Origin: Candidatus Latescibacterota bacterium
Lineage (GTDB): Bacteria; Latescibacterota; UBA2968
DNA length: 64,000 nt
NCBI GenBank assembly: GCA_965208125.1
Contig: OZ242320.1
Span: 2,688,001 to 2,752,000 of the forward strand
Direction of reading: 5' to 3'
Part shown: piece after piece, positions 10,612 through 24,157 of the stretch
Layout: each line of letters begins with the position of its first letter
How positions within the stretch are numbered: position 1 is the first letter of the stretch
The notes under the pieces: model-generated
Databases searched by the model: none
What the model was told of the DNA's origin: nothing
Seen by the model: the letters and a program-made list of their open reading frames with translations, nothing else
Translations under genes and position numbers: made by a program

Positions 10612-12207
10612 GTGAATAAAAAACAGGCCGATGTGCCCGATTTGCTTCAGATTGAAGGCGGGTTAAATTCAGGTACATCGCGGGAGGTGTCGCAACAAAC
10701 CGGTGTTCCCGAAGCACATGTCTATGGCGTGGGTAGTTTTTTTGATTTGTTGACGGATACGGACAAAAAAGTGCGGGTCTGCACGGGTTTGTCGTGTCGC
10801 ATGGCGGGTGCAGATCAGGTGCTGCAGGCGATGGAAGATGCGGGTCTGCCCGCGATGGGGTGTTCGTGTCTGGCAGCTTGTGATCGTCCGCCTGCGGTGT
10901 TGCGAGACCGCGATGTATTGCCCGCTGTATCGGTCGAAGATGTGGTGCGGGCAGATGGCGATTGGACAAGGCTTTTGCCTGAAATTGTGTCCAGTGACAA
11001 AAGCTGGTTGGGGCATGTGGGGCCAGAGGTGGATGATCCAGATACTATGGCGATTAATTTGTTGGGTCAGGCCGATTGGTCGGGCAAAGCGTTTGCTAAA
11101 GCCGCGAAGATGCGTCCCGAAGAAATTATCGAAGAAATAGAGACGTCAGGGCTGCAGGGTCGCGGTGGTGCGGGTTTTTCTGCTTCTTTTAAGTGGAATG
11201 CCGTGTGTTCAGAAAAAGAGACCACGCGTTATGTGGTCTTAAATGGCGATGAGAGCGAGCCAGGTACATTTAAGGATAGAGAGATTTTGATGCGTCGTCC
11301 CGATCTGGTTATTGAGGGATTGGCGATTGCGGCTTATACAATTGGGGCGAGAGATGTTTATTTGTACTTGCGGGGCGAGTTCGCTTTTCCAAAGGCTGTG
11401 ATGGCAAAAGCTATTGCGGAGTTTGAATCACATAATATATTTCCCGATATCCGTTTTCACATGCACTCGGGGCAGGGGGCGTATATTTGCGGCGAGGAGA
11501 CGGCACTTTTAGAGGCTTTGGAGGGCAAGCGCGGGATGCCGCGTTTGCGACCACCGTATCCCACAGAATACGGTCTGTGGGGAAAACCCACTCTTATTCA
11601 CAATGTGGAGACTGTTGCGTGCGTGCCTTCGATTATTTCTAACGGCGGTGATTGGTTTCGCGATTTGGGGCGCACAGAGGCGGGGTCAAAAGTGTATTGT
11701 ATTAGCGGGCATGTCAAACGCCCCGGTGTCTATGAGTTGCCATTGGGCATGACTTTGGATGAATTGGTTGAAGAGGCGGGCGGATATATTGGCACTCCGA
11801 AGGCGTTTAGCCCTGGGGGTGCGAGTTCGGGATTTTTGCCAGCTAAATACAGAGATCAGCCATTGGATTTTAAGACAATGGATGGATTGGGTTCGCTGCT
11901 CGGCTCGGCTGGTGTTGTCGTGTTGAACGATACGGTGGATATGAAATGGTCGGTCAGTCAACAGTTGAGATTTTTTCACGATGAAAGCTGCGGCCAATGC
12001 GCCCCCTGTCGCATTGGCACGCGGTATTTACACGAGGCACTGGAAAATCGCATTTGCAATCGGGAACAGGACCACAAACCTCATTTGCAACACGCAGAAG
12101 ATGTGGCGTGGCAAATGAGTGAGGGTTCGATATGTGGTCTTGGGCAAATTGCTGCTCTCCCCCTGACGAGTGCCCAAAAATTCTTCCCCGAGGAGTTTGA
12201 TGAATAA
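10612..12207 (+). CDS. Fused NuoE/NuoF-like (FdsG/FdsB-like) diaphorase subunit of an NAD-linked formate dehydrogenase
   Basis: VCTGLSC..CLAAC 2Fe-2S motif; GRGGAGF, DESEPGTFKDR, GAYICGEE FMN/NADH motifs; CGQCAPC..CGLG 4Fe-4S; GTG start at 10612 after GAGG. Confidence 0.88.
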   Translation: MNKKQADVPDLLQIEGGLNSGTSREVSQQTGVPEAHVYGVGSFFDLLTDTDKKVRVCTGLSCRMAGADQVLQAMEDAGLPAMGCSCLAACDRPPAVLRDRDVLPAVSVEDVVRADGDWTRLLPEIVSSDKSWLGHVGPEVDDPDTMAINLLGQADWSGKAFAKAAKMRPEEIIEEIETSGLQGRGGAGFSASFKWNAVCSEKETTRYVVLNGDESEPGTFKDREILMRRPDLVIEGLAIAAYTIGARDVYLYLRGEFAFPKAVMAKAIAEFESHNIFPDIRFHMHSGQGAYICGEETALLEALEGKRGMPRLRPPYPTEYGLWGKPTLIHNVETVACVPSIISNGGDWFRDLGRTEAGSKVYCISGHVKRPGVYELPLGMTLDELVEEAGGYIGTPKAFSPGGASSGFLPAKYRDQPLDFKTMDGLGSLLGSAGVVVLNDTVDMKWSVSQQLRFFHDESCGQCAPCRIGTRYLHEALENRICNREQDHKPHLQHAEDVAWQMSEGSICGLGQIAALPLTSAQKFFPEEFDE

Positions 12208-15016
12208 ATTGACATTGAACGGACAGACGGTGTGCTTTGCCGAAGGGGAAACCCTGCTGGATATTGCATCCCGTTATGGATTGGAGATTCCAACCCTGTG
12301 TCACGATCCGCGTTTAGAGCCCGCGGGTGCGTGTCGCTCTTGTCTTGTGGAAGTTGCAGGAGAACGATTGATGACGCCGGCCTGTGCGCGCATGGCACGA
12401 GACGGGATGGTGGTGACGACCGAGAATGAGCGCATTGATCGGCACCGCCAAACCCTGATGGCTCTGTACATGACTGATCATCCGCACGAGCGCGAAGTAT
12501 CGGAAGTCGGTTCGCCGGATTTATTGCTGGATATGGCTGCCGAGTTTGACGCACCGATGGATTGGGGCTGGATGGAGCCGATGCGGGGAGATCGAGAAGA
12601 TCACAATCCCTATGTGGATTTTAATCCCGAGACCTGTATTGCGTGTGCGCGGTGCGTGCGCTATTGCGAGGAAGTAGAAGGCGTTTCGGCTATTACTCTT
12701 GCAGGTAGAGGGTCGCATACGACGATTTCTACGGTGGAAGAAAAATCACTGCTGGATACGACGTGCGAGTTGTGCGGTGGATGTATTGATGTGTGTCCAA
12801 CTGGTGCCATGAATGAAAAATTGCCACTTATGCGCGGGCAAAAACCCGAGCGCGAACTGGTAAAGGTGCGGTCAACCTGCAACTTCTGTGGGGTGGGCTG
12901 TCAACTCGATCTCAATGTGGATTTAGAAGGACGAGATGGCAAGGGTCAAATCGTCAAGGTGACGAGTCCTCCGCCGGGCACGACGACTAATGACGGCAAT
13001 TTGTGTGTCAAGGGACGCTTTGCCTATGACTTTGTCCATCACAAGGACCGGTTGACGCAGCCGCTTGTGCGGGGTGAGGATGGCGTATTACATCCGACTA
13101 CCTGGGACGATGCGCTCCAAAAAGCGGCGGATGGGTTGTTGGGCGTTGCGGAGCGACACGGCGCAGATGCCCTGGGTTTTGTGAGTTCGTCGCGGTGTAC
13201 GATGGAGGAAAATTTTCTCGTTCAGAAGATGGCGCGCGCACTGTTTCGGGCAAATCACGTCCATCAGTGCGCGGCCACGTGACACGCGCCAACCGTGGCC
13301 GGTCTGGTCGAAACATTTGGTGCGGGTGCTATGACGAATTCAATTGGCGAGATACGCGATGTTGATTTTCTGTTTGTGATTGGCAGCAATACGAGCGAGG
13401 CGCATCCGATTATTGCTATGGAAATGAAGCGCGCGATTCGCAAAGGCGCGACCTTGGTTGTCGCCGATCCCCGGGCGATATGGATGACGTCTATTGCGGA
13501 AAAGCATTTGCAACTCAATCCCGGTACAGATGTGTGGTTGCTCAATGCCATGGCGCATGTCATTGTGGCAGAGGATTTGATCGACCGCGAATTTATCGAA
13601 AATCAGACTGAAAATTTTGAGCAGGTCAAAGAGACTGTCGCGTCTTATACACCCGAAAAGGCGGAAGAGATAACGGGTATTTCAGCAGATGATATTCGCT
13701 GGACTGCGCGGCAGTACGCTACGACGGAAAAAGCGGGTATATACTATACGCTGGGCATTACGGAACACGCACACGGGACGGATAATGTGTATGCGCTTGC
13801 AAATCTGGTTTTGATGACGGGGCATCTGGGCAAGCCATCAACCGGGATGAATCCCCTGCGCGGACAGAATAATGTGCAGGGTGCAAATGACGCGGGTGCC
13901 ACGCCGATGTTTTATCCGGGTTATCAGCGCGTGGATAATCCAGAGGTGCGGGAAAAGTACGAAAAGTCATGGGGTGTTCCACTGTCCCCTGTGCCGGGTT
14001 TGAATCTCAATGAGATGATGAAGACGGTGGGGGAACAGATGCGCGGCTTTTTTGTGATGGGTGAAGATATTGTGTTGTCCGAGCCAAATGTTCTCGAGTT
14101 GGAAAAGGGGTTGAATAATGTCGATTTTATCGTGATGCAAGATGCGTTTATGAATGAGACGGCGCGTTTTGCCGATGTGATTTTGCCCGCAGCCGTGTTT
14201 GCCGAGAAGGAGGGGACGTTCACCAATTCAGAGCGTCGCATTCAGAGGGTTCGCAAAGCGGTTGAACCCCCTGGGGAAGCGCTTCCAGATTGGGAAATTC
14301 TGGTTATGCTGGCGAATAAGATGGGCGCGAATTGGTCGTACAAAGATCCGGCAGAGGTGTATGCCGAGATGGTTAAAGACGTTCCTCAATTTGCCGGTAT
14401 CAGTCACGAGAAATTGGAAAAGATAGATCGCACAGCAGGAGAAGAGAGCATAGCGGGCTTGCAGTGGCCGTGTCCCGATGCGGATCATCCGGGTACAAAA
14501 TTTTTACACGAAGATGGGATTTTGCGGGGTAAGGGGTTGTTTATGCCCGTGCATTATATCCCGCCGGCAGAATTGCCAGATGAAGATTACGGTCTTTTTC
14601 TTTCTACGGGACGCACGCTGTATCACTACAATGCCGCAACGCAGACGCGCCGAGAGTCCGGGCTTGATGCAAAACAGTCCGAGGCTTTTGTGGAGTTGCA
14701 TCCGCGCGATGCGCGGAAACGGGGTGTTCATCACGGGGATATGGTGGAGGTGACGACGCGGCGCGGGCGTGTGCAGTTGCGGGCTATTTTGTCGCGGCAA
14801 GTGCGCCCGGGGTGTATCTGGATGCCGTTGCATTTTGCCGAGGCGCGCGCCAATGTGCTGACCAATGATGTGGGCGATGCAGTGACGGGGACAGCTGAGT
14901 ACAAGGTGTGTGCGGCGGAGGTGCGATTGGTCGAGTCGATGCCCGATAATGAAAAGTTCTTTCCGGGGAGCTATTACTACGAGAAGGGACCGGGGTTGCA
15001 GCGCGTGGGTGATTGA
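12200..15016 (+). CDS. fdhF: Selenocysteine-containing formate dehydrogenase alpha subunit (Sec codon TGA 13280-13282); one gene split into two ORFs by the ORF track
   Basis: ORFs 12170-13282 and 13295-15016 are in the same frame; readthrough gives HQCAAT-U-HAPTVAGL, aligning with the FdhF CARVUHGPSVAGL motif; PLRGQNNVQG, EKEGTFTNSERRIQ, and N-terminal Fe-S motifs. Confidence 0.93.
13283..13328 (+). promoter_or_regulatory. Bacterial SECIS element
   Basis: After UGA: CACGCGCCA..GGCCGGUCUGGUC..UGGUGCGGGUG; the apical GGUCUG matches the fdhF-type SECIS, and the lower stem GCGCCA/UGGUGC can pair. Confidence 0.75.
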
Positions 15017-15028
15017 GTCGGGGGATTT

Positions 15029-15062
15029 AAAAAAGCCGCGAGTATAATTCGCGGTTTTTTTT
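15029..15062. terminator. Bidirectional intrinsic terminator
   Basis: A-run, GCCGCGAG-loop-TTCGCGGT, T-run between convergent genes. Confidence 0.8.
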
Positions 15063-16521
15063 AATAGGCTAACGCCTCTCGACCGAATCGCTCGGCAGCC
15101 TCAAGGGTCTCGCGCACATCGTCCCAGTTCGTGGTGTGGTTGGCGATGCACAGCCGGAGTGAAAACTTTCCATGCAGAAGCGTTGAGGATATAAAGGCTT
15201 TGTCTTCCCAAAAGATGCGGGCGAGTATTGTCTTGTTGATCTCTGCGAGTTCTTCTTCGTCAACAGCGGTATCGGTGGATTTGACGCGGAAGCATACGAT
15301 CCCCAGTGACGCGGGGTTTAACATCTCCAGTATTTGGCTTTCGCAGACGTACTCTTCCGCACGGGCGGCCAATTCCATTCCCTTTGCTACAGCCCCCCGA
15401 AATGCGGCCATCCCAAAGGTCTGGATCGACATCCAGATCTTAAGAGCGCGTACCGAACGGCTCAGTTGCAGGCCGCGATCCGAGAAGTTCGGGTGGTTCG
15501 CGCCCCATATTGTGTCCTGGAGAATGTCGTGGTGAACGCCGAAGGCGTTTTCAAGTGTACTAAGGTCTTTGACCAGCAGACAGCCGGCCTCATAAGGCTG
15601 GAAGAACCATTTGTGCGCGTCCAGGCCGATGGAATCAGCCCGCTCGATCCCGCGCAAGAGTTCTTTGCCCTGTTCGGTTACGACAGCGAAGCCGCCGTAA
15701 GCAGCATCAACGTGTAGCCATATACCTTCTGCCTCGCAGTAGTCTGACATGGTTACGAGTGGATCAATAGTCCCGGTACTGCTCGTTCCTGCGTTGGCGC
15801 ATACCGCAATGGGGGTGAATCCCGCTGCGCGGTCATCGGCTACAGTCTGTGCGAGTGCTTCCATGTCCAGGCGGAAGAGGTCGTCGCTTGGGATCAGGCG
15901 TATGCATTCCGGGCGAATGCCGATGATCCTGGCTGCGCGGATGTGCGCGCTATGGCTCTGGTCGCTCATATAAACAGTGGCGCGTTCAGGGTGGCCCGCT
16001 GCTTCTCGCGCTGCGACGAGGGCATCGAGGCTGGCCGCCGAGCCGCCGCTCGTCAAAAGCCCACCCGCGCTTTCTGGATATCCGAGCCATTGCCGCAACC
16101 AATCAATGACGACCAGTTCGAGTTGACTCGGACCGCTTCCGACCAGCCAGGTGCATGCGTTGACGTTGTATCCGGCGGCCATGAAATCGGCCAGCACGCT
16201 GGGCCATGTGGGCGACGATGGGATAAACGCGAAGCAACGGGGGTGGTCCAGTCGCATCGCAATTGGTAGGATTCCGTGTGCGGCCTGTTCAATAACTTCC
16301 ACTGGGGGCCGTCCATCTTCGGGCGGATCTTTCAGGAGTTGTTTCTCCAGTCCCTGCCGGAACTCTCCGTCCCAGGCATTTTCCCCTGGCAAGGTCTCGG
16401 TTCGCGCTACCAAAAGCTCCGCGGCTTTGTGCGCGAGTTCAAGCATGAGTTCGGGGGCCATCTGGAGGCTGTTACCCGTCTCGTCTGAAAGTTCTTGTTT
16501 TGTGTCTGATCTTCTTTCCAT
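15061..16521 (-). CDS. PLP-dependent group II (aromatic-L-amino-acid-type) decarboxylase
   Basis: HPRCFAFIP, SGGSAA, SDQSHS, GTSSTGTIDP, WLHVDAAYGG, DAHKW (PLP lysine); start 16521 (or 16533 with an ATGA overlap). Confidence 0.9.
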   Translation of the reverse strand: MERRSDTKQELSDETGNSLQMAPELMLELAHKAAELLVARTETLPGENAWDGEFRQGLEKQLLKDPPEDGRPPVEVIEQAAHGILPIAMRLDHPRCFAFIPSSPTWPSVLADFMAAGYNVNACTWLVGSGPSQLELVVIDWLRQWLGYPESAGGLLTSGGSAASLDALVAAREAAGHPERATVYMSDQSHSAHIRAARIIGIRPECIRLIPSDDLFRLDMEALAQTVADDRAAGFTPIAVCANAGTSSTGTIDPLVTMSDYCEAEGIWLHVDAAYGGFAVVTEQGKELLRGIERADSIGLDAHKWFFQPYEAGCLLVKDLSTLENAFGVHHDILQDTIWGANHPNFSDRGLQLSRSVRALKIWMSIQTFGMAAFRGAVAKGMELAARAEEYVCESQILEMLNPASLGIVCFRVKSTDTAVDEEELAEINKTILARIFWEDKAFISSTLLHGKFSLRLCIANHTTNWDDVRETLEAAERFGREALAY

Positions 16522-16529
16522 ACCCCTTC

Positions 16530-17459
16530 TCATTTTTTCACCTGCGGATAAAAGCCCGAGAGGAAGGTTAATTCCATGCCGGTTTGTGAGTCAGTGATTG
16601 GGATGGCATAACTGATCTTGGGCGAGCCAATGGGATCGCCTACTAATTCGCCATCACCATTCTCATCTACCGCCGGATTATCGAAGTAATACTCGACAAA
16701 ACCGCCACCTGCTGCGGCTGCAGCGATGAGTTCCTGGACGTATTTGACGCCATTGGGATCTTCAAAGTTAATCAGGTTTTGTCCCTCGAGATCTGCATTG
16801 GCTGCGTGAAATAATATGACGCCCTCGCTGTTTAAAACTGCGAGGTAGATGGCTTCGTGTTTCCACCTGCCATCTTCTTGTCTGAATTCTTCTGCGATGT
16901 CTTCGGAAAAGGGGAAGCTTTTCGCGTATTCTTTTGCGGCTTCTACAAAGGCTTTCAGGGTTTTCTTATCTACTACATCTCTGGCTGTGATCTGCTTTGT
17001 TGGCTCTTCCAGGGAGTATGAACCTTTCACCTGTACTTTTCCGCCAATGGGTAAATAGAGTATGACCTTATAGCCTGCGTTAATTGGTATGCTGGACCAG
17101 GAGCCGATCTCGACTCCGTCCTGCGAAGCACGCGCCTGGTAATAACCATTGCCCGATGAGATTTCCACCAGTGTTTGACCTTTTTCATCTGTTGTGCCAG
17201 ACCACTCATAGGCTGGCGTCTGTCCGGCAATGGAGCGCGAAAATTCTACGGTTGCACCGCTTACTGATGCGCCATCACGATGCAAAGTGACCATGACAAC
17301 AGCCTGTGCTTTGTGATGGGCTACTGCTAATTTGCTCAGGGGATGTCCAATCTGTTCCTCTGTGCCGACTTCTGGCTGCGTCACGCGCTCTCCGCCGCAG
17401 TTCCACATCAGTCCTGCAGCGAGAGCTATGATAGCTATACTGCGAATGTGGTTCATCAC
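16530..17459 (-). CDS. Putative lipoprotein: shared ~85-aa beta-rich domain plus one Cache_2-type domain
   Basis: Signal ending LMWNCGG; VEFSRSIAG..GTTD..GYYQAR..WSSIPIN..LPIGG domain; YLAVLNSEGVILFH..GQNL...DPNGVKYVQELI..GGGFVEYYF..PKISY (Cache). Confidence 0.75.
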   Translation of the reverse strand: MMNHIRSIAIIALAAGLMWNCGGERVTQPEVGTEEQIGHPLSKLAVAHHKAQAVVMVTLHRDGASVSGATVEFSRSIAGQTPAYEWSGTTDEKGQTLVEISSGNGYYQARASQDGVEIGSWSSIPINAGYKVILYLPIGGKVQVKGSYSLEEPTKQITARDVVDKKTLKAFVEAAKEYAKSFPFSEDIAEEFRQEDGRWKHEAIYLAVLNSEGVILFHAANADLEGQNLINFEDPNGVKYVQELIAAAAAGGGFVEYYFDNPAVDENGDGELVGDPIGSPKISYAIPITDSQTGMELTFLSGFYPQVKK

Positions 17460-17518
17460 CGGTCCTCCGTTTGTTGAATTTATTTTTTTGTGGTTCAAGG
17501 GTTATCAGTTACCTGTCT

Positions 17519-17548
17519 TCAAAGGGTCAATGTGGTTATATGCTTCAA
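17519..17548 (-). pseudogene. Dead N-terminal remnant (MKHITTLTL*) paralogous to the start of 19561-21159
   Basis: GGAGG RBS, TTG start and upstream UTR match 21160-21214; CTT TGA AGA here aligns with CTT TGG GGA in the intact gene. Confidence 0.45.
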
Positions 17549-17613
17549 GGTGATTACCTCCTTTTTTAAGTTTGATACTGTGAACTATGCCTTTCTATGA
17601 CTAAAGCAGGCAC

Positions 17614-17642
17614 ATTTTAGGGTTAAGAGATCAATTTGTCAA
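17614..17642 (-). promoter_or_regulatory. Sigma70-type promoter
   Basis: TTGACA-N17-TAAAAT on the minus strand. Confidence 0.6.
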
Positions 17643-17700
17643 ACTATATTAGAAGCAAAGCCCCAGGGATCTATGCTCCAAAAGGCGGTCAAATAAAAAC

Positions 17701-17738
17701 AAACCGCTCTCTTTTTTCGCCGTGCAAGAGAGCGGTTT
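17701..17738 (-). terminator. Intrinsic terminator after the SBP lipoprotein gene (paralog at about 21347-21382)
   Basis: AACCGCTCTCTT / AAGAGAGCGGTT inverted repeat, present at both paralogous sites. Confidence 0.75.
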
Positions 17739-17777
17739 GAGTGTAGTAAAAATGGATTGTTGATCGATTTCAGGACC

Positions 17778-19385
17778 TCACGGCGTGAACCGATAGACCA
17801 CGGGCAATTGCGCGGGGTCTGTGATGTTCAAATCTGTGTGGTGGTAGATGTTTATGCGCCCGGTGCCGCAGTCTCCAAATTCGTCGCAGGTGAGCGTGCC
17901 CAGGAGGCCCTGAAAGCCGGATGTCGCGTGGAGTTCTCTGCGCAGTGCGGCGCGATCTACATACAATTTCCCGCCAGCTTCGCCTGCAACAATCTCGATG
18001 GCGTTGAGCAGTAGCGTTGTGGCGTCGTAAGCGTGCGCCCAGTAAGGCGTGTTCGGAGACCCGCCGTACGTGGCTGCAAATGCGGCGAGGACTTCATCTA
18101 CGCTCTTGCCGGTGGCAGCATTGACGTTTGAGCCAATCACTGGCTCCGGGCCGGCAAAGTAGATGCCCTCCGATTGCGGCAGGGCGAGGAATTCTGTCAG
18201 GAGGAGGGCCGAACTCGTGATGAGTGTCGCGTCTTTCAGGCTGTCGTGTTCCCGCACCTGCTCGGCGAAGGGCGCGCCTTCCAGATCGAAGAGTGGAAAA
18301 TAGATGCCGTCCGGCTCGGCTGCTGCAAATTCCGTGAGGACAGATGCCATGTCCGTCTGCCCTTTCTCGATCCTGGCGGTGGCCGCAACTTCACCGCCCA
18401 GGGCGCTAAACGCATTGCCAAACGCGACGGTGAGGCCCATGGTGTACGGGTCGCCATCGTCTATGGCCACCAGGCGCCGCAGGCCCAATTCACTATATGC
18501 GAAATCGGCTACTGCGTTTGCCTCATAGAGGTCGTTGTTAGAGGTGCGGAAATAGCCGGAGTGGTAATTGGGACTCGCGTTACCGGCGAGGTCAGAGGTG
18601 AGCGCAGGCGAGGTGTTGGACGGCGAGATCATTACCAGCCCTGCCTCGCTGATCACCGGTGAGGCCGCCACTGCCGCACCCGAGCAGTTCGTGCCGATGA
18701 CGCCGACTACCTGCGGGTCGGCGATGATCTGCTCTGCGCCCATGCGTCCGCCTTCCGGTCCGCATCCGGTGTCCAGTGATTCGCCAAGTTCAACCGCGTG
18801 ACCGTGGATCAGGCCGAAGTCTCGCACGGCCAATTCAATAGCGTACCGCGACCACTCAGCAAGCCCCGGCACGACGGTGTGCGAGAGCAACGAACGGATT
18901 TGAACGGCTTCGCCCTCGTCAATCGTGACTAAAGAGCGCATGGATGAACCAGTCACCTGTGCTTGTCCACCGATGGGCAAATCGAGCATGACCTCGTAGC
19001 CCGCGTTGATTGGAATGCTCGACCAGGAACCGATTTCGATCCCGTCCTGTGAGACTCGCGCTTGATAATAACCATTGCTCGATGTGATTTCCACCCAGGC
19101 CTGACCATTGTCGTCGGTTGTGCCCGACCACTGATAGTCCGGGGCCTGTCCTGCAATGGAGCGCGAAAATTCTACAGTTGCACCGCTTACTGGTGCGCCA
19201 TCCTGGTGTACAGTGACCCCTATCGTAGCCTGTACGGCATCTTCGTGCGCCACCAATTTGCTCAGGGGACGGCCAACCTGCTCTTCTGTTCCGGTTTCTG
19301 ACTGTGTAACGCGCTCGCCGCCGCAGTTCCACATCAGTCCTGCAGCGAGAGCTATGATAGCTATACTGCGAATGTGTCTCATCAC
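17778..19385 (-). CDS. Putative lipoprotein: shared ~85-aa domain plus LivJ-type (branched-chain amino acid) substrate-binding domain
   Basis: Same leader and shared domain as 16530-17459; DTGC..VIGTNCSGA, MISPSNTSP, YFR, AYDA, FQGLLG. Confidence 0.82.
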   Translation of the reverse strand: MMRHIRSIAIIALAAGLMWNCGGERVTQSETGTEEQVGRPLSKLVAHEDAVQATIGVTVHQDGAPVSGATVEFSRSIAGQAPDYQWSGTTDDNGQAWVEITSSNGYYQARVSQDGIEIGSWSSIPINAGYEVMLDLPIGGQAQVTGSSMRSLVTIDEGEAVQIRSLLSHTVVPGLAEWSRYAIELAVRDFGLIHGHAVELGESLDTGCGPEGGRMGAEQIIADPQVVGVIGTNCSGAAVAASPVISEAGLVMISPSNTSPALTSDLAGNASPNYHSGYFRTSNNDLYEANAVADFAYSELGLRRLVAIDDGDPYTMGLTVAFGNAFSALGGEVAATARIEKGQTDMASVLTEFAAAEPDGIYFPLFDLEGAPFAEQVREHDSLKDATLITSSALLLTEFLALPQSEGIYFAGPEPVIGSNVNAATGKSVDEVLAAFAATYGGSPNTPYWAHAYDATTLLLNAIEIVAGEAGGKLYVDRAALRRELHATSGFQGLLGTLTCDEFGDCGTGRINIYHHTDLNITDPAQLPVVYRFTP

Positions 19386-19446
19386 CGGTCCTCCCTTTGT
19401 TGAGTTTTTTCAGGTTTTGCGAAAGTCTGCTATATGGTGTAAATGC

Positions 19447-19475
19447 AGTTTATGCTTAGAAACTCTATTTGTCAA
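19447..19475 (-). promoter_or_regulatory. Sigma70-type promoter
   Basis: TTGACA-N17-TAAACT on the minus strand upstream of 19385. Confidence 0.6.
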
Positions 19476-19503
19476 ATATGTTTGTGAAGTCCTTGAGTAA
19501 AAT

Positions 19504-19535
19504 AAAAAAGCCGCGAATTATGCTCACGGCTTTTT
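19504..19535 (-). terminator. Intrinsic terminator
   Basis: AAAAAAGCCGCGAAT-loop-CTCACGGCTTTTT; similar to the one at 15029-15062. Confidence 0.7.
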
Positions 19536-19560
19536 AGCCTCCGTTTGTTGAATCTCATAT

Positions 19561-21159
19561 TTATTTTACCAGAAGCAGCCGTCGAATGATGACGCTACTT
19601 GAATGTGCCAACCGATAAATGTAAACGCCGCTGGAAACTTCTCGGCCAAACTCGTCCTTGCCATCCCAGGTGACACGATAATGACCAGATGCCTGACTGT
19701 CCTGTACAAGGACGCGAACCTGCTGTCCCAATGTGTTGTATATCGCCAGGCTCACATGCCCTGTTTCGGGTATCTGATAGGCGATTTGCGTAGAGGGGTT
19801 GAAAGGGTTGGGGACGTTGGGATGTAGGACGAGGCCCTGCATAGCCATCTGGGCGCGATCGCCTATGGGAAGGGAGAGCGTTGTGGGTTCCCCACTGTTG
19901 ATGGGAATGCTGTTCCAGGTGGCGAGTGTGTTGCCATCTGCGTCCTTCGCACGGGCGAGGTAGTAGCCCGAAGCGTCGCTATCAGATTGAATTTCGATGG
20001 TGGTGCGTCCTTCGGCATCAGTGGTGCCTTGCCACAGGTATTCGGATGCGCGACCCGCAATGGATCGGGAGAATTCGACTGTGGCGTCTGCTACAGGCTG
20101 ATCGTTCTGGGTGAGGGTGATATTCACCATAGCGCGCTTGAGGTCTTTATAGAACCCGGCGCCGACGATATACTCCCCGCCACGGAACACAACGAGTTCG
20201 GCGTAGCTCACTTTAGGCGAACCGATGTCTTCATCGCCTTCTACCGCAGGGTCGTCGAAGTAATATTCGACATATCCACCGCCCGCCTTTGCCACGTTAA
20301 TGAGTTCTCGGATGAACTTAACCCCGTTTATATCCACCCGATCGAGACTGCTCACAAACCTGTGCTCTACCGATCGGTCGGCACCGTGAAAGTACACATA
20401 ACCGTCCGTGGTGAAGACAAAAAAGTAAACGGAGCCTTGTCTATAGGGGCCACCTTCTTCTCTGAAGAGATCCTGATTTTGCTGAAGTATGTCAAGCCCG
20501 ACTTGCTCTATGGCTTTTAGATAGCGGTTTCCCGTCCCCTGTACGAATGCCTTGAGGGTTTCCCGATCAACCACGTCGGCGGCTGTGACGTCGGGAGGAG
20601 GGATGAGGGACGGATCGAACGGCGTTGCACTGGCATGCGAAACATCCTGGTAATAGCCGCCGATCAGGACCACCGTGGTTCCGGCTATTCCGGAGGTATA
20701 ATTGACGGCGTAGGCGACCTTGGGGGTGTCCTCGTCTCCTTCCACTGCCGGGTCATCCCAGTAATACTCGACGTGGCCTCCGCCCATGTTGGCTGCTGCA
20801 AGGAGGTTTTGCACGACCTTATTGCCGCGGGCGTCTTCGATGTCGTACAGGTGCTTGCCGTTCACGCTGATGTCACCGGCATGATGAAATACCGTGCCAT
20901 CTGGTAACATGATGATGAGGTACGTGTTCCCGTGTTTCCAATCCCCCTCGATGCTAATGCTGTGGAGATACGGCGCGAGGTTGTTGGGGTCGGTAAAAGC
21001 TTCCGCATGTGATTTTGCATATAATACGAATGCCTCCAATGTCTCCGCATCTACCACTTCGCTGGCGGTTATCTTCTGAGGTGATTGAGCTATGGCAGGT
21101 TGCACTGCTGCAAAGAGACTTGCCATTCCCCAAAGGATTACTGCTGTTAGACGTCTCAA
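19561..21159 (-). CDS. Secreted protein: two Cache_2-type domains, shared ~85-aa domain, and C-terminal FlgD-Ig / T9SS-like sorting domain
   Basis: Signal peptide ending AIA-Q; two GGG(H/Y)VEYY(W/F)DDP..PKV(A/S)YA units; VEFSRSIAG domain; PNPFNPSTQIAY..IYNTLGQ..WDG.D..G..VSSGVYIY tail. Confidence 0.8.
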   Translation of the reverse strand: MRRLTAVILWGMASLFAAVQPAIAQSPQKITASEVVDAETLEAFVLYAKSHAEAFTDPNNLAPYLHSISIEGDWKHGNTYLIIMLPDGTVFHHAGDISVNGKHLYDIEDARGNKVVQNLLAAANMGGGHVEYYWDDPAVEGDEDTPKVAYAVNYTSGIAGTTVVLIGGYYQDVSHASATPFDPSLIPPPDVTAADVVDRETLKAFVQGTGNRYLKAIEQVGLDILQQNQDLFREEGGPYRQGSVYFFVFTTDGYVYFHGADRSVEHRFVSSLDRVDINGVKFIRELINVAKAGGGYVEYYFDDPAVEGDEDIGSPKVSYAELVVFRGGEYIVGAGFYKDLKRAMVNITLTQNDQPVADATVEFSRSIAGRASEYLWQGTTDAEGRTTIEIQSDSDASGYYLARAKDADGNTLATWNSIPINSGEPTTLSLPIGDRAQMAMQGLVLHPNVPNPFNPSTQIAYQIPETGHVSLAIYNTLGQQVRVLVQDSQASGHYRVTWDGKDEFGREVSSGVYIYRLAHSSSVIIRRLLLVK

Positions 21160-21423
21160 AACAATTCCTCCCTTTTTGAGTTGTGATACTGTGAACTATA
21201 CTTTTCTTATGGATAATAAAGATACGACTCCTCCCCCAAAAAAAGTAGTTTTATTTATACAAACGTTTTCTTTTATTAATTCTATTTACGATACAAGCAG
21301 AAGCTCAGATCCAGGATGCTCTGCTTTGAAAGGAGGGCTAAAAAACAACCGCTCTCTTGTTGGAACTTGTAAGAGAGCGGTTGAGTGTCGTAAAGAAATG
21401 GATTGTTGATTGATTTCAGGACA

Positions 21424-23031
21424 TCACGGTGAGAAGCGATAGACCACGGGCAATTGCGCGGGGTCTGTGATGTTCAAATCTGTGTGGTGATAGATGTTTA
21501 TGCGCCCGGTGCCGCAGTCTCCAAATTCGTCGCAGGTGAGCGTGCCGAGGAGGCCCTGGAAGCCGGATGTATGATGGAGTTCCCTGCGCAGTGCGGCGCG
21601 ATCGACATACAATTTCCCGTCATCTTCGCCCGCGACAATCTCGATGGCATTGAGCAGTAGCGTTGTGGCGTCGTAAGCGTGCGCCCAGTAAGGCGTGCCT
21701 GGAAATCCGCCATACGCGGCTTCATACGCGACGAGCACGTCATCTACGCTTTTACCCGTTGTAGAATTGACATTTGTGCCGAGGTCCGTCTCAGGTCCCG
21801 CAGCGTAAATGCCCTCTGACTGCGGTTTGGCGAGGAACTCCGAATCGAGGAGAGCCGCACCCGCGATAAGTGTCGCGTCTTTCAGGCTGTCGTGTTCCCG
21901 CACTTGCTTGGCGAAAGGTATGCCTTCTTCGTCGAAGAGCGGGAAGAAGATGCCGTCTGGTGTGGCTGCCGCGAATTCCGTGAGGACAGATGTCATGTCC
22001 GTCTGTCCTTTCGCGATCCTGGCGGTGGCTGCAACTTCGCCGCCGATAGCGCTAAACGCATTGTCAAATGCGACGGTGAGGCCCATGGTGTAAGGGTCAC
22101 CATCGTTGATGGCCGCCATGCGCCGCAGGCCCAATTCATTATACGCGAAATCGGCGACTGCCCGCGCCTGATAGAGATCGTTGACCGATACGCGGAAATA
22201 GCCGGGGTGATAGTCGGAACTCGCGTTGCCCGCGAGGTCCGATGTGAGTGCTGGCGAGGTGTTGGACGGCGAGATCATTACCAGTCCCGCCGCGCTGATT
22301 ACTGGCGAGGCCGCCACTGCTGCGCCGGAGCAGGATGTGCCGATGACGCCCAGTACCTGCGGGTCGGCGATGATCTGCTCTGCACCCATGTGTCCGCCTT
22401 CCGGTCCACACCCGGTGTCTATTGACTCGCCGAGTTCGACCGCGTGACCGTGGATCAGACCGAAGTCTTGCACGGCCAACTCAATAGCGTGCCGCGATGG
22501 GACACCGAGCGACGCCGCGATGGTATGTGTGAGCAACGAGCGGATCTGCACGGCTTCGCCTTCCTCAATCTCGACCTGAGATCGCACGGATGAACCAGTT
22601 ACATGCGCCCTTCCACCAATGGGCAAATCGAGCATGACCTCGTAGCCCGCGTTGATCGGAATGCTCGACCAGGAACCGATCACGACCTCGTCCTGAGAGG
22701 CACGCGCCTGGTAATAACCATTGCCAGATTTGATTTCCACCCATGCATGACCGTGGTCGTCGGTCGTGCCCGACCAATGGTAGTCTGGTGCCTGTCCTGC
22801 AATGGAACGCGAAAATTCTAAAGTTGCACCGCTTACTGGTGCGCCATCACGGTGCACAGTGGCTCTTACTATAGCCTGTACGGCATCTCCGTGCGCTACC
22901 AATTTGCTCAGGGGACGTCCAATCTGTTCGTCTGTCCCGGTCTCTGACTGCGTGACGCGCTCACCGCCGCAGTTCCACATCAGTCCTGCGGCAAGAGCTA
23001 TGACAACTATAATGCGGATGTGTTTCATCAC
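21424..23031 (-). CDS. Putative lipoprotein, close paralog of 17778-19385 (shared domain plus LivJ-type SBP)
   Basis: Collinear and highly similar over the full length at both protein and DNA level; GGAGGACCGGTGATG start context. Confidence 0.82.
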   Translation of the reverse strand: MMKHIRIIVVIALAAGLMWNCGGERVTQSETGTDEQIGRPLSKLVAHGDAVQAIVRATVHRDGAPVSGATLEFSRSIAGQAPDYHWSGTTDDHGHAWVEIKSGNGYYQARASQDEVVIGSWSSIPINAGYEVMLDLPIGGRAHVTGSSVRSQVEIEEGEAVQIRSLLTHTIAASLGVPSRHAIELAVQDFGLIHGHAVELGESIDTGCGPEGGHMGAEQIIADPQVLGVIGTSCSGAAVAASPVISAAGLVMISPSNTSPALTSDLAGNASSDYHPGYFRVSVNDLYQARAVADFAYNELGLRRMAAINDGDPYTMGLTVAFDNAFSAIGGEVAATARIAKGQTDMTSVLTEFAAATPDGIFFPLFDEEGIPFAKQVREHDSLKDATLIAGAALLDSEFLAKPQSEGIYAAGPETDLGTNVNSTTGKSVDDVLVAYEAAYGGFPGTPYWAHAYDATTLLLNAIEIVAGEDDGKLYVDRAALRRELHHTSGFQGLLGTLTCDEFGDCGTGRINIYHHTDLNITDPAQLPVVYRFSP

Positions 23032-23134: not shown

Positions 23135-24157
23135 TTACGCAAATGCCAGAGCTTTTCTGGCAGCTTGAGCCTGAGGTGAGTTGGGATCGCGTCGTATGGC
23201 GCGATTCATAGCAAGATGTGCGCGTTTATCTCCGGTTTTAGCCAGTTCGAGGGCTTCTGCAAAACCTTTCTCCGAATAGCTGTGGTCGCGGGGTATGATG
23301 CGATTGTCCTGGTTTTGCCAGTAATATTTGAGGTCTTCGGTTTCCCAGTCTTTGTACACGTCTTCCCAGGTGAGATTGTTAAAGATGTTCAGATGGGGTT
23401 CGAGCATGTGTTCAGATAGGGTATCGCCGAGTTTTTGATAGCGGTTGTCGAGGGATACGCGAAGGCGGTCTTCGGTGAGATTTGGTAGAGCCTGGTGTAC
23501 TGTGAGTGCGGGAAAGATGAGGGTATCGCCGATTTCGTAGTTGGTGCTGTGCCATTGGCCTTTCAATTCGTCGGTGTGGATGCACAGGCCGCCCGCGCCG
23601 AGGGAGAAGTGGTGGTTCATCACGGCATTGATTTTGTGAGAGCCGGGCAGTACGGCGAGGCCACCGAGTTCAATGGGGCAGTCGCCTACAGGTGCCCAGC
23701 AGGTGTAGGTGTCGAAGTTGCCCTGAAAGTGGACAAAGTCCTGGTGAATCGGTGTGGTGTGCGCCGTGTATTTGGGAAACCACAGGCGAGCGACTTTGTG
23801 CGGATGCGGGAAAACAGAGCCGTCCATTACTTTTTCGAGCAGGTCGAGTACTTCTGGTTCATGGGCAATGCGGTGAAAGGCTTCGAGTTTGTACACTTCG
23901 TGATATACGTCGGTGTATTCGGGGTCGCCTTCGGTACATTGCCTGGAAATATCGGCAATGCCATCTATGGGGTCGATTCCCTCGACGAGCCAGGGTGTCA
24001 TTTTGTTGAGCATTTGTCGCCGCAAATCCCAGAGTTTGTCCGGGTTTTGCAATTTGCGGAAGAAGATATATCCCTCTTCTCGGATGCGCCGTCGCAACTC
24101 TTCCGAATCGTTGATCGCGTCGTTGGATACGCGCAATTCTGCAATCTGGTCAGGCAT
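23135..24157 (-). CDS. Phytanoyl-CoA dioxygenase (PhyH) family Fe(II)/2OG oxygenase
   Basis: TPIHQD (HxD), GGLAVLPGSH, GDTLIF..VH, RVSLDNRY. Confidence 0.88.
   Translation of the reverse strand: MPDQIAELRVSNDAINDSEELRRRIREEGYIFFRKLQNPDKLWDLRRQMLNKMTPWLVEGIDPIDGIADISRQCTEGDPEYTDVYHEVYKLEAFHRIAHEPEVLDLLEKVMDGSVFPHPHKVARLWFPKYTAHTTPIHQDFVHFQGNFDTYTCWAPVGDCPIELGGLAVLPGSHKINAVMNHHFSLGAGGLCIHTDELKGQWHSTNYEIGDTLIFPALTVHQALPNLTEDRLRVSLDNRYQKLGDTLSEHMLEPHLNIFNNLTWEDVYKDWETEDLKYYWQNQDNRIIPRDHSYSEKGFAEALELAKTGDKRAHLAMNRAIRRDPNSPQAQAARKALAFA

Follow-up and report, generated by a model that had tools for sequence, protein, structure and literature searches.

In textbook type IX secretion, the cargo loses its C-terminal tail by cleavage and is then attached through its newly formed C-terminus to a lipid-linked glycan; in the cargo gingipain RgpB, an Ig-like domain precedes that tail. 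Carboxypeptidase-regulatory/transthyretin-like domains, for which a T-T-D-x-x-G turn and a G-Y-Y strand are typical, likewise find accessory use in cell-envelope proteins. Bacteroidetes surface lipoproteins such as BtuH2 combine a lipoprotein signal with one or more beta-sandwich domains and a small-molecule-binding head; the BtuH2 report describes homologues with and without N-terminal domains, PKD-type Ig domains, a Bacteroides export signal and a locus with a TonB-dependent transporter (PMC8941943). Fusion to an output module is the rule for Cache domains (more than 90%), and an output-less Cache has been called "highly unusual" in a preprint that also describes the sCache_heme family, which is soluble, periplasmic and binds c-type haem via CXXCH (bioRxiv 10.64898/2026.02.01.703092). 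Here, we compare these systems with a gene array in a 64,000-nucleotide stretch of DNA (the window) of Candidatus Latescibacterota bacterium (GCA_965208125.1, OZ242320.1:2,688,001-2,752,000; positions are window coordinates unless marked genome). Four adjacent genes of this array encode one beta-sandwich domain, hereafter the module, which is attached to different ligand-binding heads. We read the module as a generic pedestal next to an anchor and not as a device that assembles ligand-binding heads.

The array comprises six co-oriented minus-strand genes (g6-g1), and the module is carried by the middle four, g5-g2 (window 16530-23031). It occurs in two formats: in N-class proteins, the module comes straight after the leader, and in C-class proteins it stands straight before a FlgD_ig/Por_Secre_tail region. 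A preliminary description of this DNA had recognised the four adjacent co-oriented genes with their common domain, as well as the architectures, namely leader and domain followed by a LivJ-type protein (g3, g5) or one Cache domain (g2), and two Cache domains followed by the domain and a type IX secretion system (T9SS) tail (g4). Both points were borne out. The extent then given to the feature, 15061-23031, was too wide, since it takes in the decarboxylase gene g1 (15061-16533), which is not one of the four. The module genes and their parts are as follows.

g5, 21424..23031 (also 23142), minus strand: N-class protein with lipoprotein-like leader, linker, module and LivJ-type Peripla_BP_6 head (123.5 bits; cut-off 31.7)
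g5 leader, 22969..23031, minus strand: ends at a putative lipidated Cys (..LMWNC-GGE..)
g5 linker (PLSKL motif) and beta-sandwich module, 22579..22923, minus strand: placed by the alignment of the shared domain
g4, 19561..21159, minus strand: C-class protein with Sec signal peptide, two sCache_2 domains, module and T9SS C-terminal domain (sCache_2 78.6 bits; cut-off 25)
g4 first sCache_2 core, 20632..20934 (genome 2708632-2708934), minus strand: 45.4 bits
g4 second sCache_2 core, 20128..20445 (genome 2708128-2708445), minus strand: 39.2 bits
g4 module, 19843..20136, minus strand: immediately before the secretion tail; 49% identical to the g3 module (E 7.1e-25)
g4 T9SS type A sorting domain, 19564..19812, minus strand: residues 450-529; TIGR04183 32.6 bits (cut-off 23), FlgD_ig 38.4 (cut-off 27)
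g3, 17778..19385, minus strand: N-class protein with leader, linker, module and LivJ-type head (Peripla_BP_6 118.1 bits; cut-off 31.7)
g3 linker and module, 18933..19277, minus strand: folded beta-sandwich at about 18939-19235 (AlphaFold2)
g3 LivJ-type head, 17781..18932, minus strand: Peripla_BP_6; sequence relatives 4n0q and 3td9
g2, 16530..17459 (also 17498), minus strand: N-class protein with leader, linker, module and one sCache_2 head; its stop overlaps the g1 start
g2 linker and module, 17007..17351, minus strand: placed by the alignment of the shared domain
g2 sCache_2 head, 16533..17006, minus strand: PF17200 53.4 bits (cut-off 25)

A profile search of all six-frame open reading frames (ORFs) of the 5.75-Mb genome identified 16 module proteins, eight of each class. 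The N-class heads are sCache_2 (g2), Peripla_BP_6 (g3, g5 and one further protein), a double Peripla_BP_6, Peripla_BP_6 plus Cu/Zn superoxide dismutase, a weak SBP_bac_3 and one without a Pfam match. The C-class proteins consist of a signal peptide, a Cache-type region, the module and the tail; they are g4, one protein encoded elsewhere, four in tandem and two in tandem, and the module is found in 8 of the 21 secretion-tail (C-terminal domain, CTD) matches of the genome. With type IX cargo of the RgpB kind, the C-class shares the order of head, beta-sandwich and C-terminal sorting domain, but the cargo of g4 is Cache, not a protease or adhesin, and its pre-tail domain belongs to the same family as the lipoprotein module. 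The main argument for a pedestal role is that the module adjoins the anchoring end of the protein in both layouts. The tandem C-class paralogues (four at L021, genome 1361605-1370059; two at L022, genome 2391278-2395212) are ca. 600-640 residues long and consist of a signal peptide, an N-terminal region of ca. 250 residues without a Pfam match, a weak dCache_2, the module and the tail.

Near-identical leaders (..IALAAGLMWNCGGERVTQ..) that end in ..LMWNC-GGERVTQ.. are present in g2, g3 and g5, and g4 has an ordinary signal peptide. Among the eight N-class paralogues of the genome, the modules are 56-82% identical, whereas the heads are unrelated or 22-31% identical, except in two recent pairs (g3/g5, 84%; one other pair, 59%). 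The DNA of g2, g3 and g5 shows 76-100% identity in most 50-column windows (lows 60-66%) from ca. 40 nt before the start codon to the module end, past which the identity of g2 to g3/g5 drops to ca. 20-40%. Every ORF of the genome with the leader motif bears the module (6/6 with a strict pattern and 7/7 with a looser one). We read the leader, linker and module as one spreading cassette of ca. 500 bp, which begins at the ribosome-binding region and finishes with the sandwich.

Related loci indicate how these genes are combined. In a comparison set of 80 related loci from named metagenome-assembled genomes (MAGs), 17 match full-length g3 including the module, 16 of them labelled Latescibacterota/Latescibacteria and one (L037) labelled "uncultured bacterium". 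Thirteen loci share the flanks of the window (an opposite-strand resistance-nodulation-division (RND) pump, PhyH, the array and formate dehydrogenase), with PhyH upstream of the array in 13/13 and the decarboxylase in 6/13. The arrays of these syntenic relatives contain two to four module genes in differing combinations (1-3 binding-protein genes, 0-2 double-Cache genes and 0-1 single-Cache gene), and two more distant loci have five or six module genes, then the decarboxylase. Furthermore, one public-run contig joins 17431 to 19363, with the junction inside the shared leader, and therefore lacks g3. The array expands and contracts among relatives.

An alignment of the four module copies spans ca. 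100 residues and contains 42 invariant columns, and the other copies are 44-69% identical to that of g2; the g3 module retrieved the other three copies from the genome at E values of 8.5e-61, 2.8e-49 and 7.1e-25, which chance does not explain. An AlphaFold2 model from the genome's 16 copies had eight strands and a mean predicted local distance difference test (pLDDT) score of 87.5, and its first 12 residues, which belong to the linker, fell below 50, as expected for a disordered segment. The folded part measures ca. 95-100 residues, not the ca. 85 estimated earlier, and the domain, previously taken to be unknown, has a recognisable fold. A VIA-align scan of the whole PDB with this model gave Z scores of 10.4 to YedX (2igl) and transthyretin (4pwe), 10.3 to a Bacteroides fragilis domain (3e8v; 26% identity, root-mean-square deviation 2.5), 9.7 to the transthyretin-like domain of carboxypeptidase D (5aq0) and 8.8 to a SusC N-terminal extension (9hfj), and Foldseek matched transthyretins at E ~1e-4. 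ESM Atlas matches, which are leads only, reached at most 0.85, and several were CarboxypepD_reg or PEGA clusters. The Pfam model CarboxypepD_reg (PF13620) scored 28.0 bits on g3, below its cut-off of 32.3, and 25.0 and 18.9 bits on paralogues; it gave nothing at E <= 0.1 on g2, g4 and g5, and some homologues carry a precomputed PF13620 label. The fold is thus a known one, but at the level of sequence the family still falls outside the curated Pfam threshold. The module has both the T-T-D-x-x-G turn and the G-Y-Y strand, and it shares fold and accessory use with the carboxypeptidase-regulatory/transthyretin-like domains; it differs from the PF13620 clan in the sub-threshold scores of the window copies, in a family-specific loop (S-R-S-I-A-G-Q-x-P-D-Y) and in being tied to one leader and linker. 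On the basis of the predicted structure, the module is a lineage-specific divergent beta-sandwich of this type, and its fold is not new.

Residues kept in at least 90% of 54 family members are three Gly and R, W, T, Y, Y, A, W, S and P, which in our judgement appear to be mostly of the fold-defining kind. A two-copy complex prediction for the module gave no answer (score 0.00, mark 0.42) and is neutral on oligomerisation. The full-length g2 model showed a disordered linker but was so weak (pLDDT 62.8, predicted template modelling score 0.42) that the packing of module and head is not readable from it.

To describe the module beyond this genome, its profile of 16 copies was scored against 1.84 billion representative proteins, which yielded 470 clusters at E <= 0.001 (268 at E <= 1e-10). 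When the best 150 of the 470 clusters were sorted, the module was N-terminal in 71, C-terminal (60-130 residues from the end) in 39, near both ends of short proteins in 18, mid-protein in 15 and multi-copy in 3, with 4 not re-detected; seven of the 150 representatives were giant proteins with 7-32 tandem module stretches. The N-class scan covered the 54 of 89 N-terminal cases that had at least 200 residues with a Cys before the module (35 were dropped). Their heads included Peripla_BP_6 (11), SnoaL (7), sCache_2 (4) and LRR, Sod_Cu, Esterase and Exo_endo_phos (nuclease/phosphatase; 2 each), besides single cases of CCP_MauG (cytochrome c peroxidase), OpuAC, Laminin_G_3, Pentaxin, Cytochrome_P460, PrcB_C and SGL. 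FlgD_ig was found in 32 of the 39 C-class members and WD40 propellers in 6. Such varied heads, including enzymes, repeat proteins and binders, suggest that the module is general-purpose and not dedicated to small-molecule-binding heads. The profile and partner catalogue proposed in the preliminary description thus comprises 16 proteins in the genome and 470 clusters in public data, with varied heads. In a phylum sample of 151 genomes, the module was present in 71, at 1-21 copies, and all 71 belong to four related families (28/29, 19/19, 21/64 and 2/2 genomes); it was not found in the 35 genomes searched from ten other families of the same sample.

The two formats differ in their predicted anchors. 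Of the 54 N-class members, 51 have a lipobox-like Cys at the corresponding position, in many as a canonical box (L-T-G-C, L-V-G-C), and it is these canonical boxes at the homologous position in distant members that point to lipidation of the window copies. Counted from this Cys, 38 of the 51 members have Gly at position +2 and 39 have Glu or Asp at +4, and the linker motif [LIVM]-[STAG]-K (L-[S/G]-K) is present in 39 of the 51, compared with 6.2 expected from shuffled linkers. For the C-class, g4 qualifies as type IX cargo by a type A C-terminal sorting domain above the curated cut-off, and the own-genome scan scored the same place at 35.3 bits, and the genome encodes SprA (505.6 bits, over the cut-off). 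A Kyte-Doolittle scan of the four proteins detected no transmembrane (TM)-like segment beyond the N-terminal signals, except for residues 233-254 of g5, which lie in the binding-protein core; apart from that segment, the earlier statement that TM helices are absent stands.

Functionally, the nearest parallel is provided by Bacteroidetes surface lipoproteins such as BtuH2, which have the same layout of lipoprotein signal (putative in the module proteins), beta-sandwich and small-molecule-binding head; as with BtuH2, homologues of the g3 head exist both with and without the N-terminal part. The module proteins differ from BtuH2 in their transthyretin-like sandwich, in the lack of a matching export signal and in their neighbours: a TonB-dependent receptor gene lay near one of the three other N-class loci scanned (L019), a single case. 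At a further locus (L023:5226-6917, plus strand; genome 3580226-3581920), a gene for a POTRA and Omp85-family protein ends 35 bases before the module lipoprotein with Peripla_BP_6 and superoxide dismutase, and ahead of it lies a gene for a 1032-residue protein without a Pfam match. This Omp85-family protein could be a translocon for module lipoproteins, although it represents one locus and not a pattern.

Among solved structures, the g3 head is closest in sequence to two Leu/Ile/Val-type binding proteins, 4n0q (E 1.1e-18) and 3td9 (E 1.3e-17). Module-free heads of the g3 type (L040-L103) are 55-76% identical between MAGs labelled Latescibacterota, Gemmatimonadota/Longimicrobiales, Dehalococcoidia, Spirochaetia, Arenicellales and Rhodothermales, with a LivH/LivM gene never nearby. 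The distribution looks like exchange between phyla within one habitat, as far as sequence identity can suggest. Because such identity across at least six labelled taxa coincides with the lack of a nearby permease, the ligand may be habitat-specific and worth identifying. A hydrophobic stretch ending in Cys precedes the head in 53 of 63 module-free loci by regular expression and in four more by eye; this suggests that the head family is usually a lipoprotein, and that in the present lineage the pedestal was added between the anchor and the head. Tethered or orphan LivJ/LivK proteins have in common with g3 and g5 the Peripla_BP_6 fold, a lipobox (putative in g3 and g5) and Leu/Ile/Val-type solved relatives; the differences are the inserted pedestal, the lack of a nearby permease in the 80 loci and the association with Cache in an array or fusion. 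The most frequent recurrent neighbour of the module-free head is a sulfatase (15 of 64 loci), followed by creatininase, hydrolases, phosphopantetheinyl transferase, rotamase and a thioredoxin-like protein, none of which suggests a transporter or a pathway. Among 49 longer relatives of the head (P0308-P0354), 41 are fusions of several substrate-binding-protein families (950-1600 residues), 6 have Ser/Thr kinase domains and 2 are Cache fusions. In a Latescibacterota MAG, one 741-residue protein (L055:8933-11158, plus strand) combines a signal peptide, dockerin-like repeats, an Ig-like region, sCache_2 and the same LivJ-type head, and P0306 and P0307 are similar fusions of Cache and binding protein. 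From their domain composition, these fusions hint that both head types may work together.

For the g2 Cache head, the closest solved relatives by sequence are chemoreceptor sCache_2 sensors (4exo, 2qhk, 3ub6 (TlpB) and 4k08). Only 2 of its 37 longer relatives are chemoreceptors; 15 have an autotransporter beta-domain, 9 have FlgD_ig and 11 consist of Cache only. Given that most are autotransporter- or tail-bearing, this Cache subfamily appears to be mainly a displayed domain and not a transmembrane sensor. In the two autotransporters that were checked, the passenger consists of four or five tandem sCache_2 domains and the beta-domain is above the cut-off; the autotransporters (P0271, P0276 and 13 more) are 1000-1700 residues long, and one is named by its source as coming from a Gemmatimonadetes MAG. 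Pfam detected no output domain in any of the four sCache_2 proteins of the genome. Like the sCache_heme family, the Cache heads of g2 and g4 are extracytoplasmic without a signalling output, but they are plain sCache_2 without CXXCH and are putatively lipid-anchored or type IX-secreted. A full-text search of a limited literature collection returned no paper joining a Cache domain with type IX secretion, and its only match for a Cache domain with an autotransporter was, judging by its title and abstract opening, on another subject.

Neither a cognate transporter nor a signalling partner was found around the array. LivH/LivM permease or LivG/LivF ATPase genes are absent from the window's locus, and a Pfam search of 19 neighbouring proteins detected no BPD_transp_2 and no kinase. 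A tblastn search with the genome's own LivH and LivM had no match in the 80 related loci, of which 8 showed weak ATP-binding cassette (ABC)-ATPase similarity (22-29% identity). The preliminary description had named consistently syntenic liv permease or kinase genes in relatives as evidence that would count against it, and neither LivH/LivM nor a kinase was found in these 80 loci. Its statement that a kinase or signalling partner is missing therefore stands, as Pfam found no output domain either. The statement that no transporter is present applies to the locus and the 80 related loci but not to the genome, which has one LivHMGF-type cluster.

Our preferred reading, which we hold to be rather probable, is that the module proteins are tethered catchers of ligands, most likely on the outer face of the cell, and that transporters encoded elsewhere take up what they catch. 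The fold, the place beside the anchors, the cassette structure, the variety of heads and the lack of syntenic permease or kinase genes are shown by the analysis; the lipidation, surface location, spacer role, ligands and uptake route that the reading assigns to the module proteins are all what we infer. In the N-class, a Cys lipoprotein signal would be followed by a disordered linker of ca. 25 residues with L-[S/G]-K, the sandwich and then any head, and the C-class would be its mirror image, with the head first and the sandwich immediately before the type IX C-terminal domain. N-class proteins would be lipidated at the Cys, and C-class proteins would lose the tail and be attached via the new C-terminus; tail removal and lipid attachment would thus leave the sandwich nearest the lipid anchor in both formats, where it would keep the head at a distance from the membrane. 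The heads (two LivJ-type and three sCache_2, with no TM or output part) would act as tethered ligand catchers, not signal transducers. The captured compound would then be imported by transporters encoded elsewhere and processed by the cytoplasmic dioxygenase (g6) and decarboxylase (g1).

Several observations weigh against this reading, and some of them lend weight to a periplasmic alternative, to which we assign a smaller but real chance. In that alternative, the N-class proteins stay in the periplasm, with their lipid anchor either in the inner membrane or in the outer membrane's inner leaflet, and several binding proteins share one distant LivHMGF importer; the module is only a spacer, and the secreted C-class Cache proteins separately reuse a stable fold. 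The lipobox of the window copies (L-M-W-N-C) is non-canonical at -2 and -1, and the PorU-like match of the genome, at 265 bits, does not reach its cut-off of 420. Some of the heads that the module bears elsewhere are enzymes usually located in the periplasm (Cu/Zn superoxide dismutase, cytochrome c peroxidase and cytochrome P460). The genome's one LivHMGF-type cluster lies ca. 1.05 Mb away and could serve orphan binding proteins: its BPD_transp_2 (LivH/LivM-type) pair at genome 1647872-1649731 is adjoined by its own Peripla_BP_6 gene (1651692-1652762), and 10 Peripla_BP_6 domain matches in the genome stand against this single Liv-type permease pair. Among solved proteins, the head is closest to ABC binding proteins of the Leu/Ile/Val type, and its module-free homologues are also lipoproteins in several phyla, including in Dehalococcoidia MAGs; a Dehalococcoidia lipoprotein of this type would normally work with an ABC importer in the cytoplasmic membrane. 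The G-G-E-R-V-T-Q that follows the Cys does not fit the Bacteroidetes surface-lipoprotein export signal, which lies just past the Cys and reads K-(D/E)2 or Q-A-(D/E)2 (PMC5080379); export would still be compatible with this mismatch, as that signal was defined in another phylum. Against a periplasmic location speaks the presence of the same module on type IX cargo, which leaves the periplasm. The relatives of the array's Cache heads are mostly autotransporter passengers or tail-bearing, fusions of Cache and binding protein occur with a plain signal peptide and dockerin-like repeats, and none of the 80 loci, from at least six labelled taxa, has a syntenic permease. A last difficulty for the pedestal reading is that the module is more conserved than expected for a passive spacer and that the linker motif is unexplained, which together make a specific partner possible.

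In another explanation, suggested by the preliminary description, the module would be a docking or polymerisation device that builds a multi-protein surface receptor from exchangeable heads. The transthyretin fold can form oligomers, the module is far better conserved than the heads among paralogues, module genes are co-encoded in arrays of 2-6, and the L-[S/G]-K motif of the linker (39/51 vs 6.2 expected) could be a short recognition motif. Nonetheless, the module also bears enzymes and repeat proteins, Gly, aromatic residues and Pro make up most of what is conserved across its family, with only one charged residue, and it is found both in long tandem runs in giant proteins (7/150, 7-32 stretches) and as a single copy in some genomes; we regard docking or polymerisation as very improbable, the least favoured of the explanations considered here. 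What survives of the suggestion is a portable module tied to membrane anchoring or display; docking and polymerisation are unsupported, and the heads are not only small-molecule binders. The carboxypeptidase-regulatory/transthyretin-like fold also goes part of the way towards the generic spacer without an interaction surface that had been named as telling against assembly. Only marginally better are the prospects of host interaction, in which the heads would bind host or matrix components and the module would display "eukaryote-like" domains to an animal host. Public runs with the locus are labelled sponge or marine metagenome, other module heads include LRR, WD40, pentaxin and laminin-G, the tandem Cache arrays on autotransporters have an adhesin-like layout, and one head is possibly spondin-like. 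The last point concerns the N-class paralogue whose head has no Pfam match (L017:7914-9659, plus strand), for which the ESM Atlas provides the only lead (score 0.93): its features point to clusters with Spond_N (spondin N-terminal domain) in 12-32% of their members. In contrast, all solved relatives found for the sCache_2 and LivJ-type domains bind small molecules, metabolic enzymes are encoded on both sides of the locus and no result points to a host target. A bolder version of tethered capture would make the cassette and its mirror form a dedicated surface-display system of a Latescibacterota class, with Cache domains as solute-binding heads, LivJ-type proteins moved to the surface, the linker motif as an outer-membrane export signal, and the whole as a non-glycan counterpart of Sus and BtuG/BtuH in an animal-host dweller; we consider this unlikely as a whole, if well ahead of docking or host binding.

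The genes on either side of the module genes, and the candidate regulatory sites between them, are as follows.

g6, 23135..24157, minus strand: PhyH-family Fe(II)/2-oxoglutarate dioxygenase without a signal peptide, first gene in the conserved locus (Pfam PhyH 52 bits; cut-off 22)
Terminator-like hairpin, 19505..19535, minus strand: 13-pair stem and T run just past the g4 stop (consensus scan only)
Promoter-like site 5' of g3, 19447..19475, minus strand: TTGACA-17-TAAACT, 10/12 (consensus scan only)
Promoter-like site 5' of g2, 17614..17642, minus strand: TTGACA-17-TAAAAT, 11/12 (consensus scan only)
g1, 15061..16533, minus strand: group II pyridoxal-phosphate-dependent decarboxylase without a signal peptide (Pyridoxal_deC 221.9 bits)
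Terminator-like hairpin 3' of the g1 stop, 15036..15054, minus strand (consensus scan only)

The best NCBIfam match of g1 is L-2,4-diaminobutyrate decarboxylase (212 bits, far below its cut-off of 900). A link of the PhyH and decarboxylase genes to ectoine or diaminobutyrate was considered and dropped, since g6 has no ectoine-hydroxylase match (E <= 0.1) and g1 lies far under the equivalog cut-off. Contigs 90-99% alike from three RNA-library runs cover parts of g1, g2, g4, g5 and g6; they are assemblies of relatives, and the libraries may hold DNA. They give a weak hint of expression, and much of g3 is uncovered, which proves nothing. Next to the array, two formate dehydrogenase ORFs on the plus strand (12170-13282 and 13295-15016) are in the same frame with a single TGA between them (stop codon 13280-13282). 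With TGA read as selenocysteine, the junction becomes ..HQCAAT-U-HAPTVAGLVETFGAGAMTNS.., and the same split into 371 and 577 residues is present in syntenic relatives; from the reading frames, the pair is probably one selenocysteine-containing fdhA gene. The plus-strand GC skew is strongly positive (0.2-0.3) under plus-strand genes and near zero over 16-24 kb, a part of the window with minus-strand genes; G appears to be enriched on the coding strand throughout.

A sponge metaproteome study ranks LivK-type binding proteins as the second most numerous bacterial function (PMC6081418). The main text of a report on sponge-associated Latescibacterota contains no Cache, type IX, lipoprotein, branched-chain or substrate-binding terms, and its supplementary gene tables could list such genes (PMC12993501). 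The array is a real and well-defined modular feature, whereas the claim that it assembles a receptor is not supported. Current understanding is not overturned, as beta-sandwich spacers beside anchors are ordinary; what stands out is the use of Cache domains for display in anchored or secreted form, together with a LivJ-type head that lacks a permease and is highly identical across MAGs of several phyla. If our reading is correct, one bacterial class would have pasted a portable anchoring cassette of ca. 500 bp onto dozens of unrelated extracytoplasmic proteins, and Cache domains would serve outside signal transduction in lipid-anchored, type IX-secreted or tandem autotransporter form. The cassette would then also be a practical marker for the envelope proteome of these uncultured organisms.

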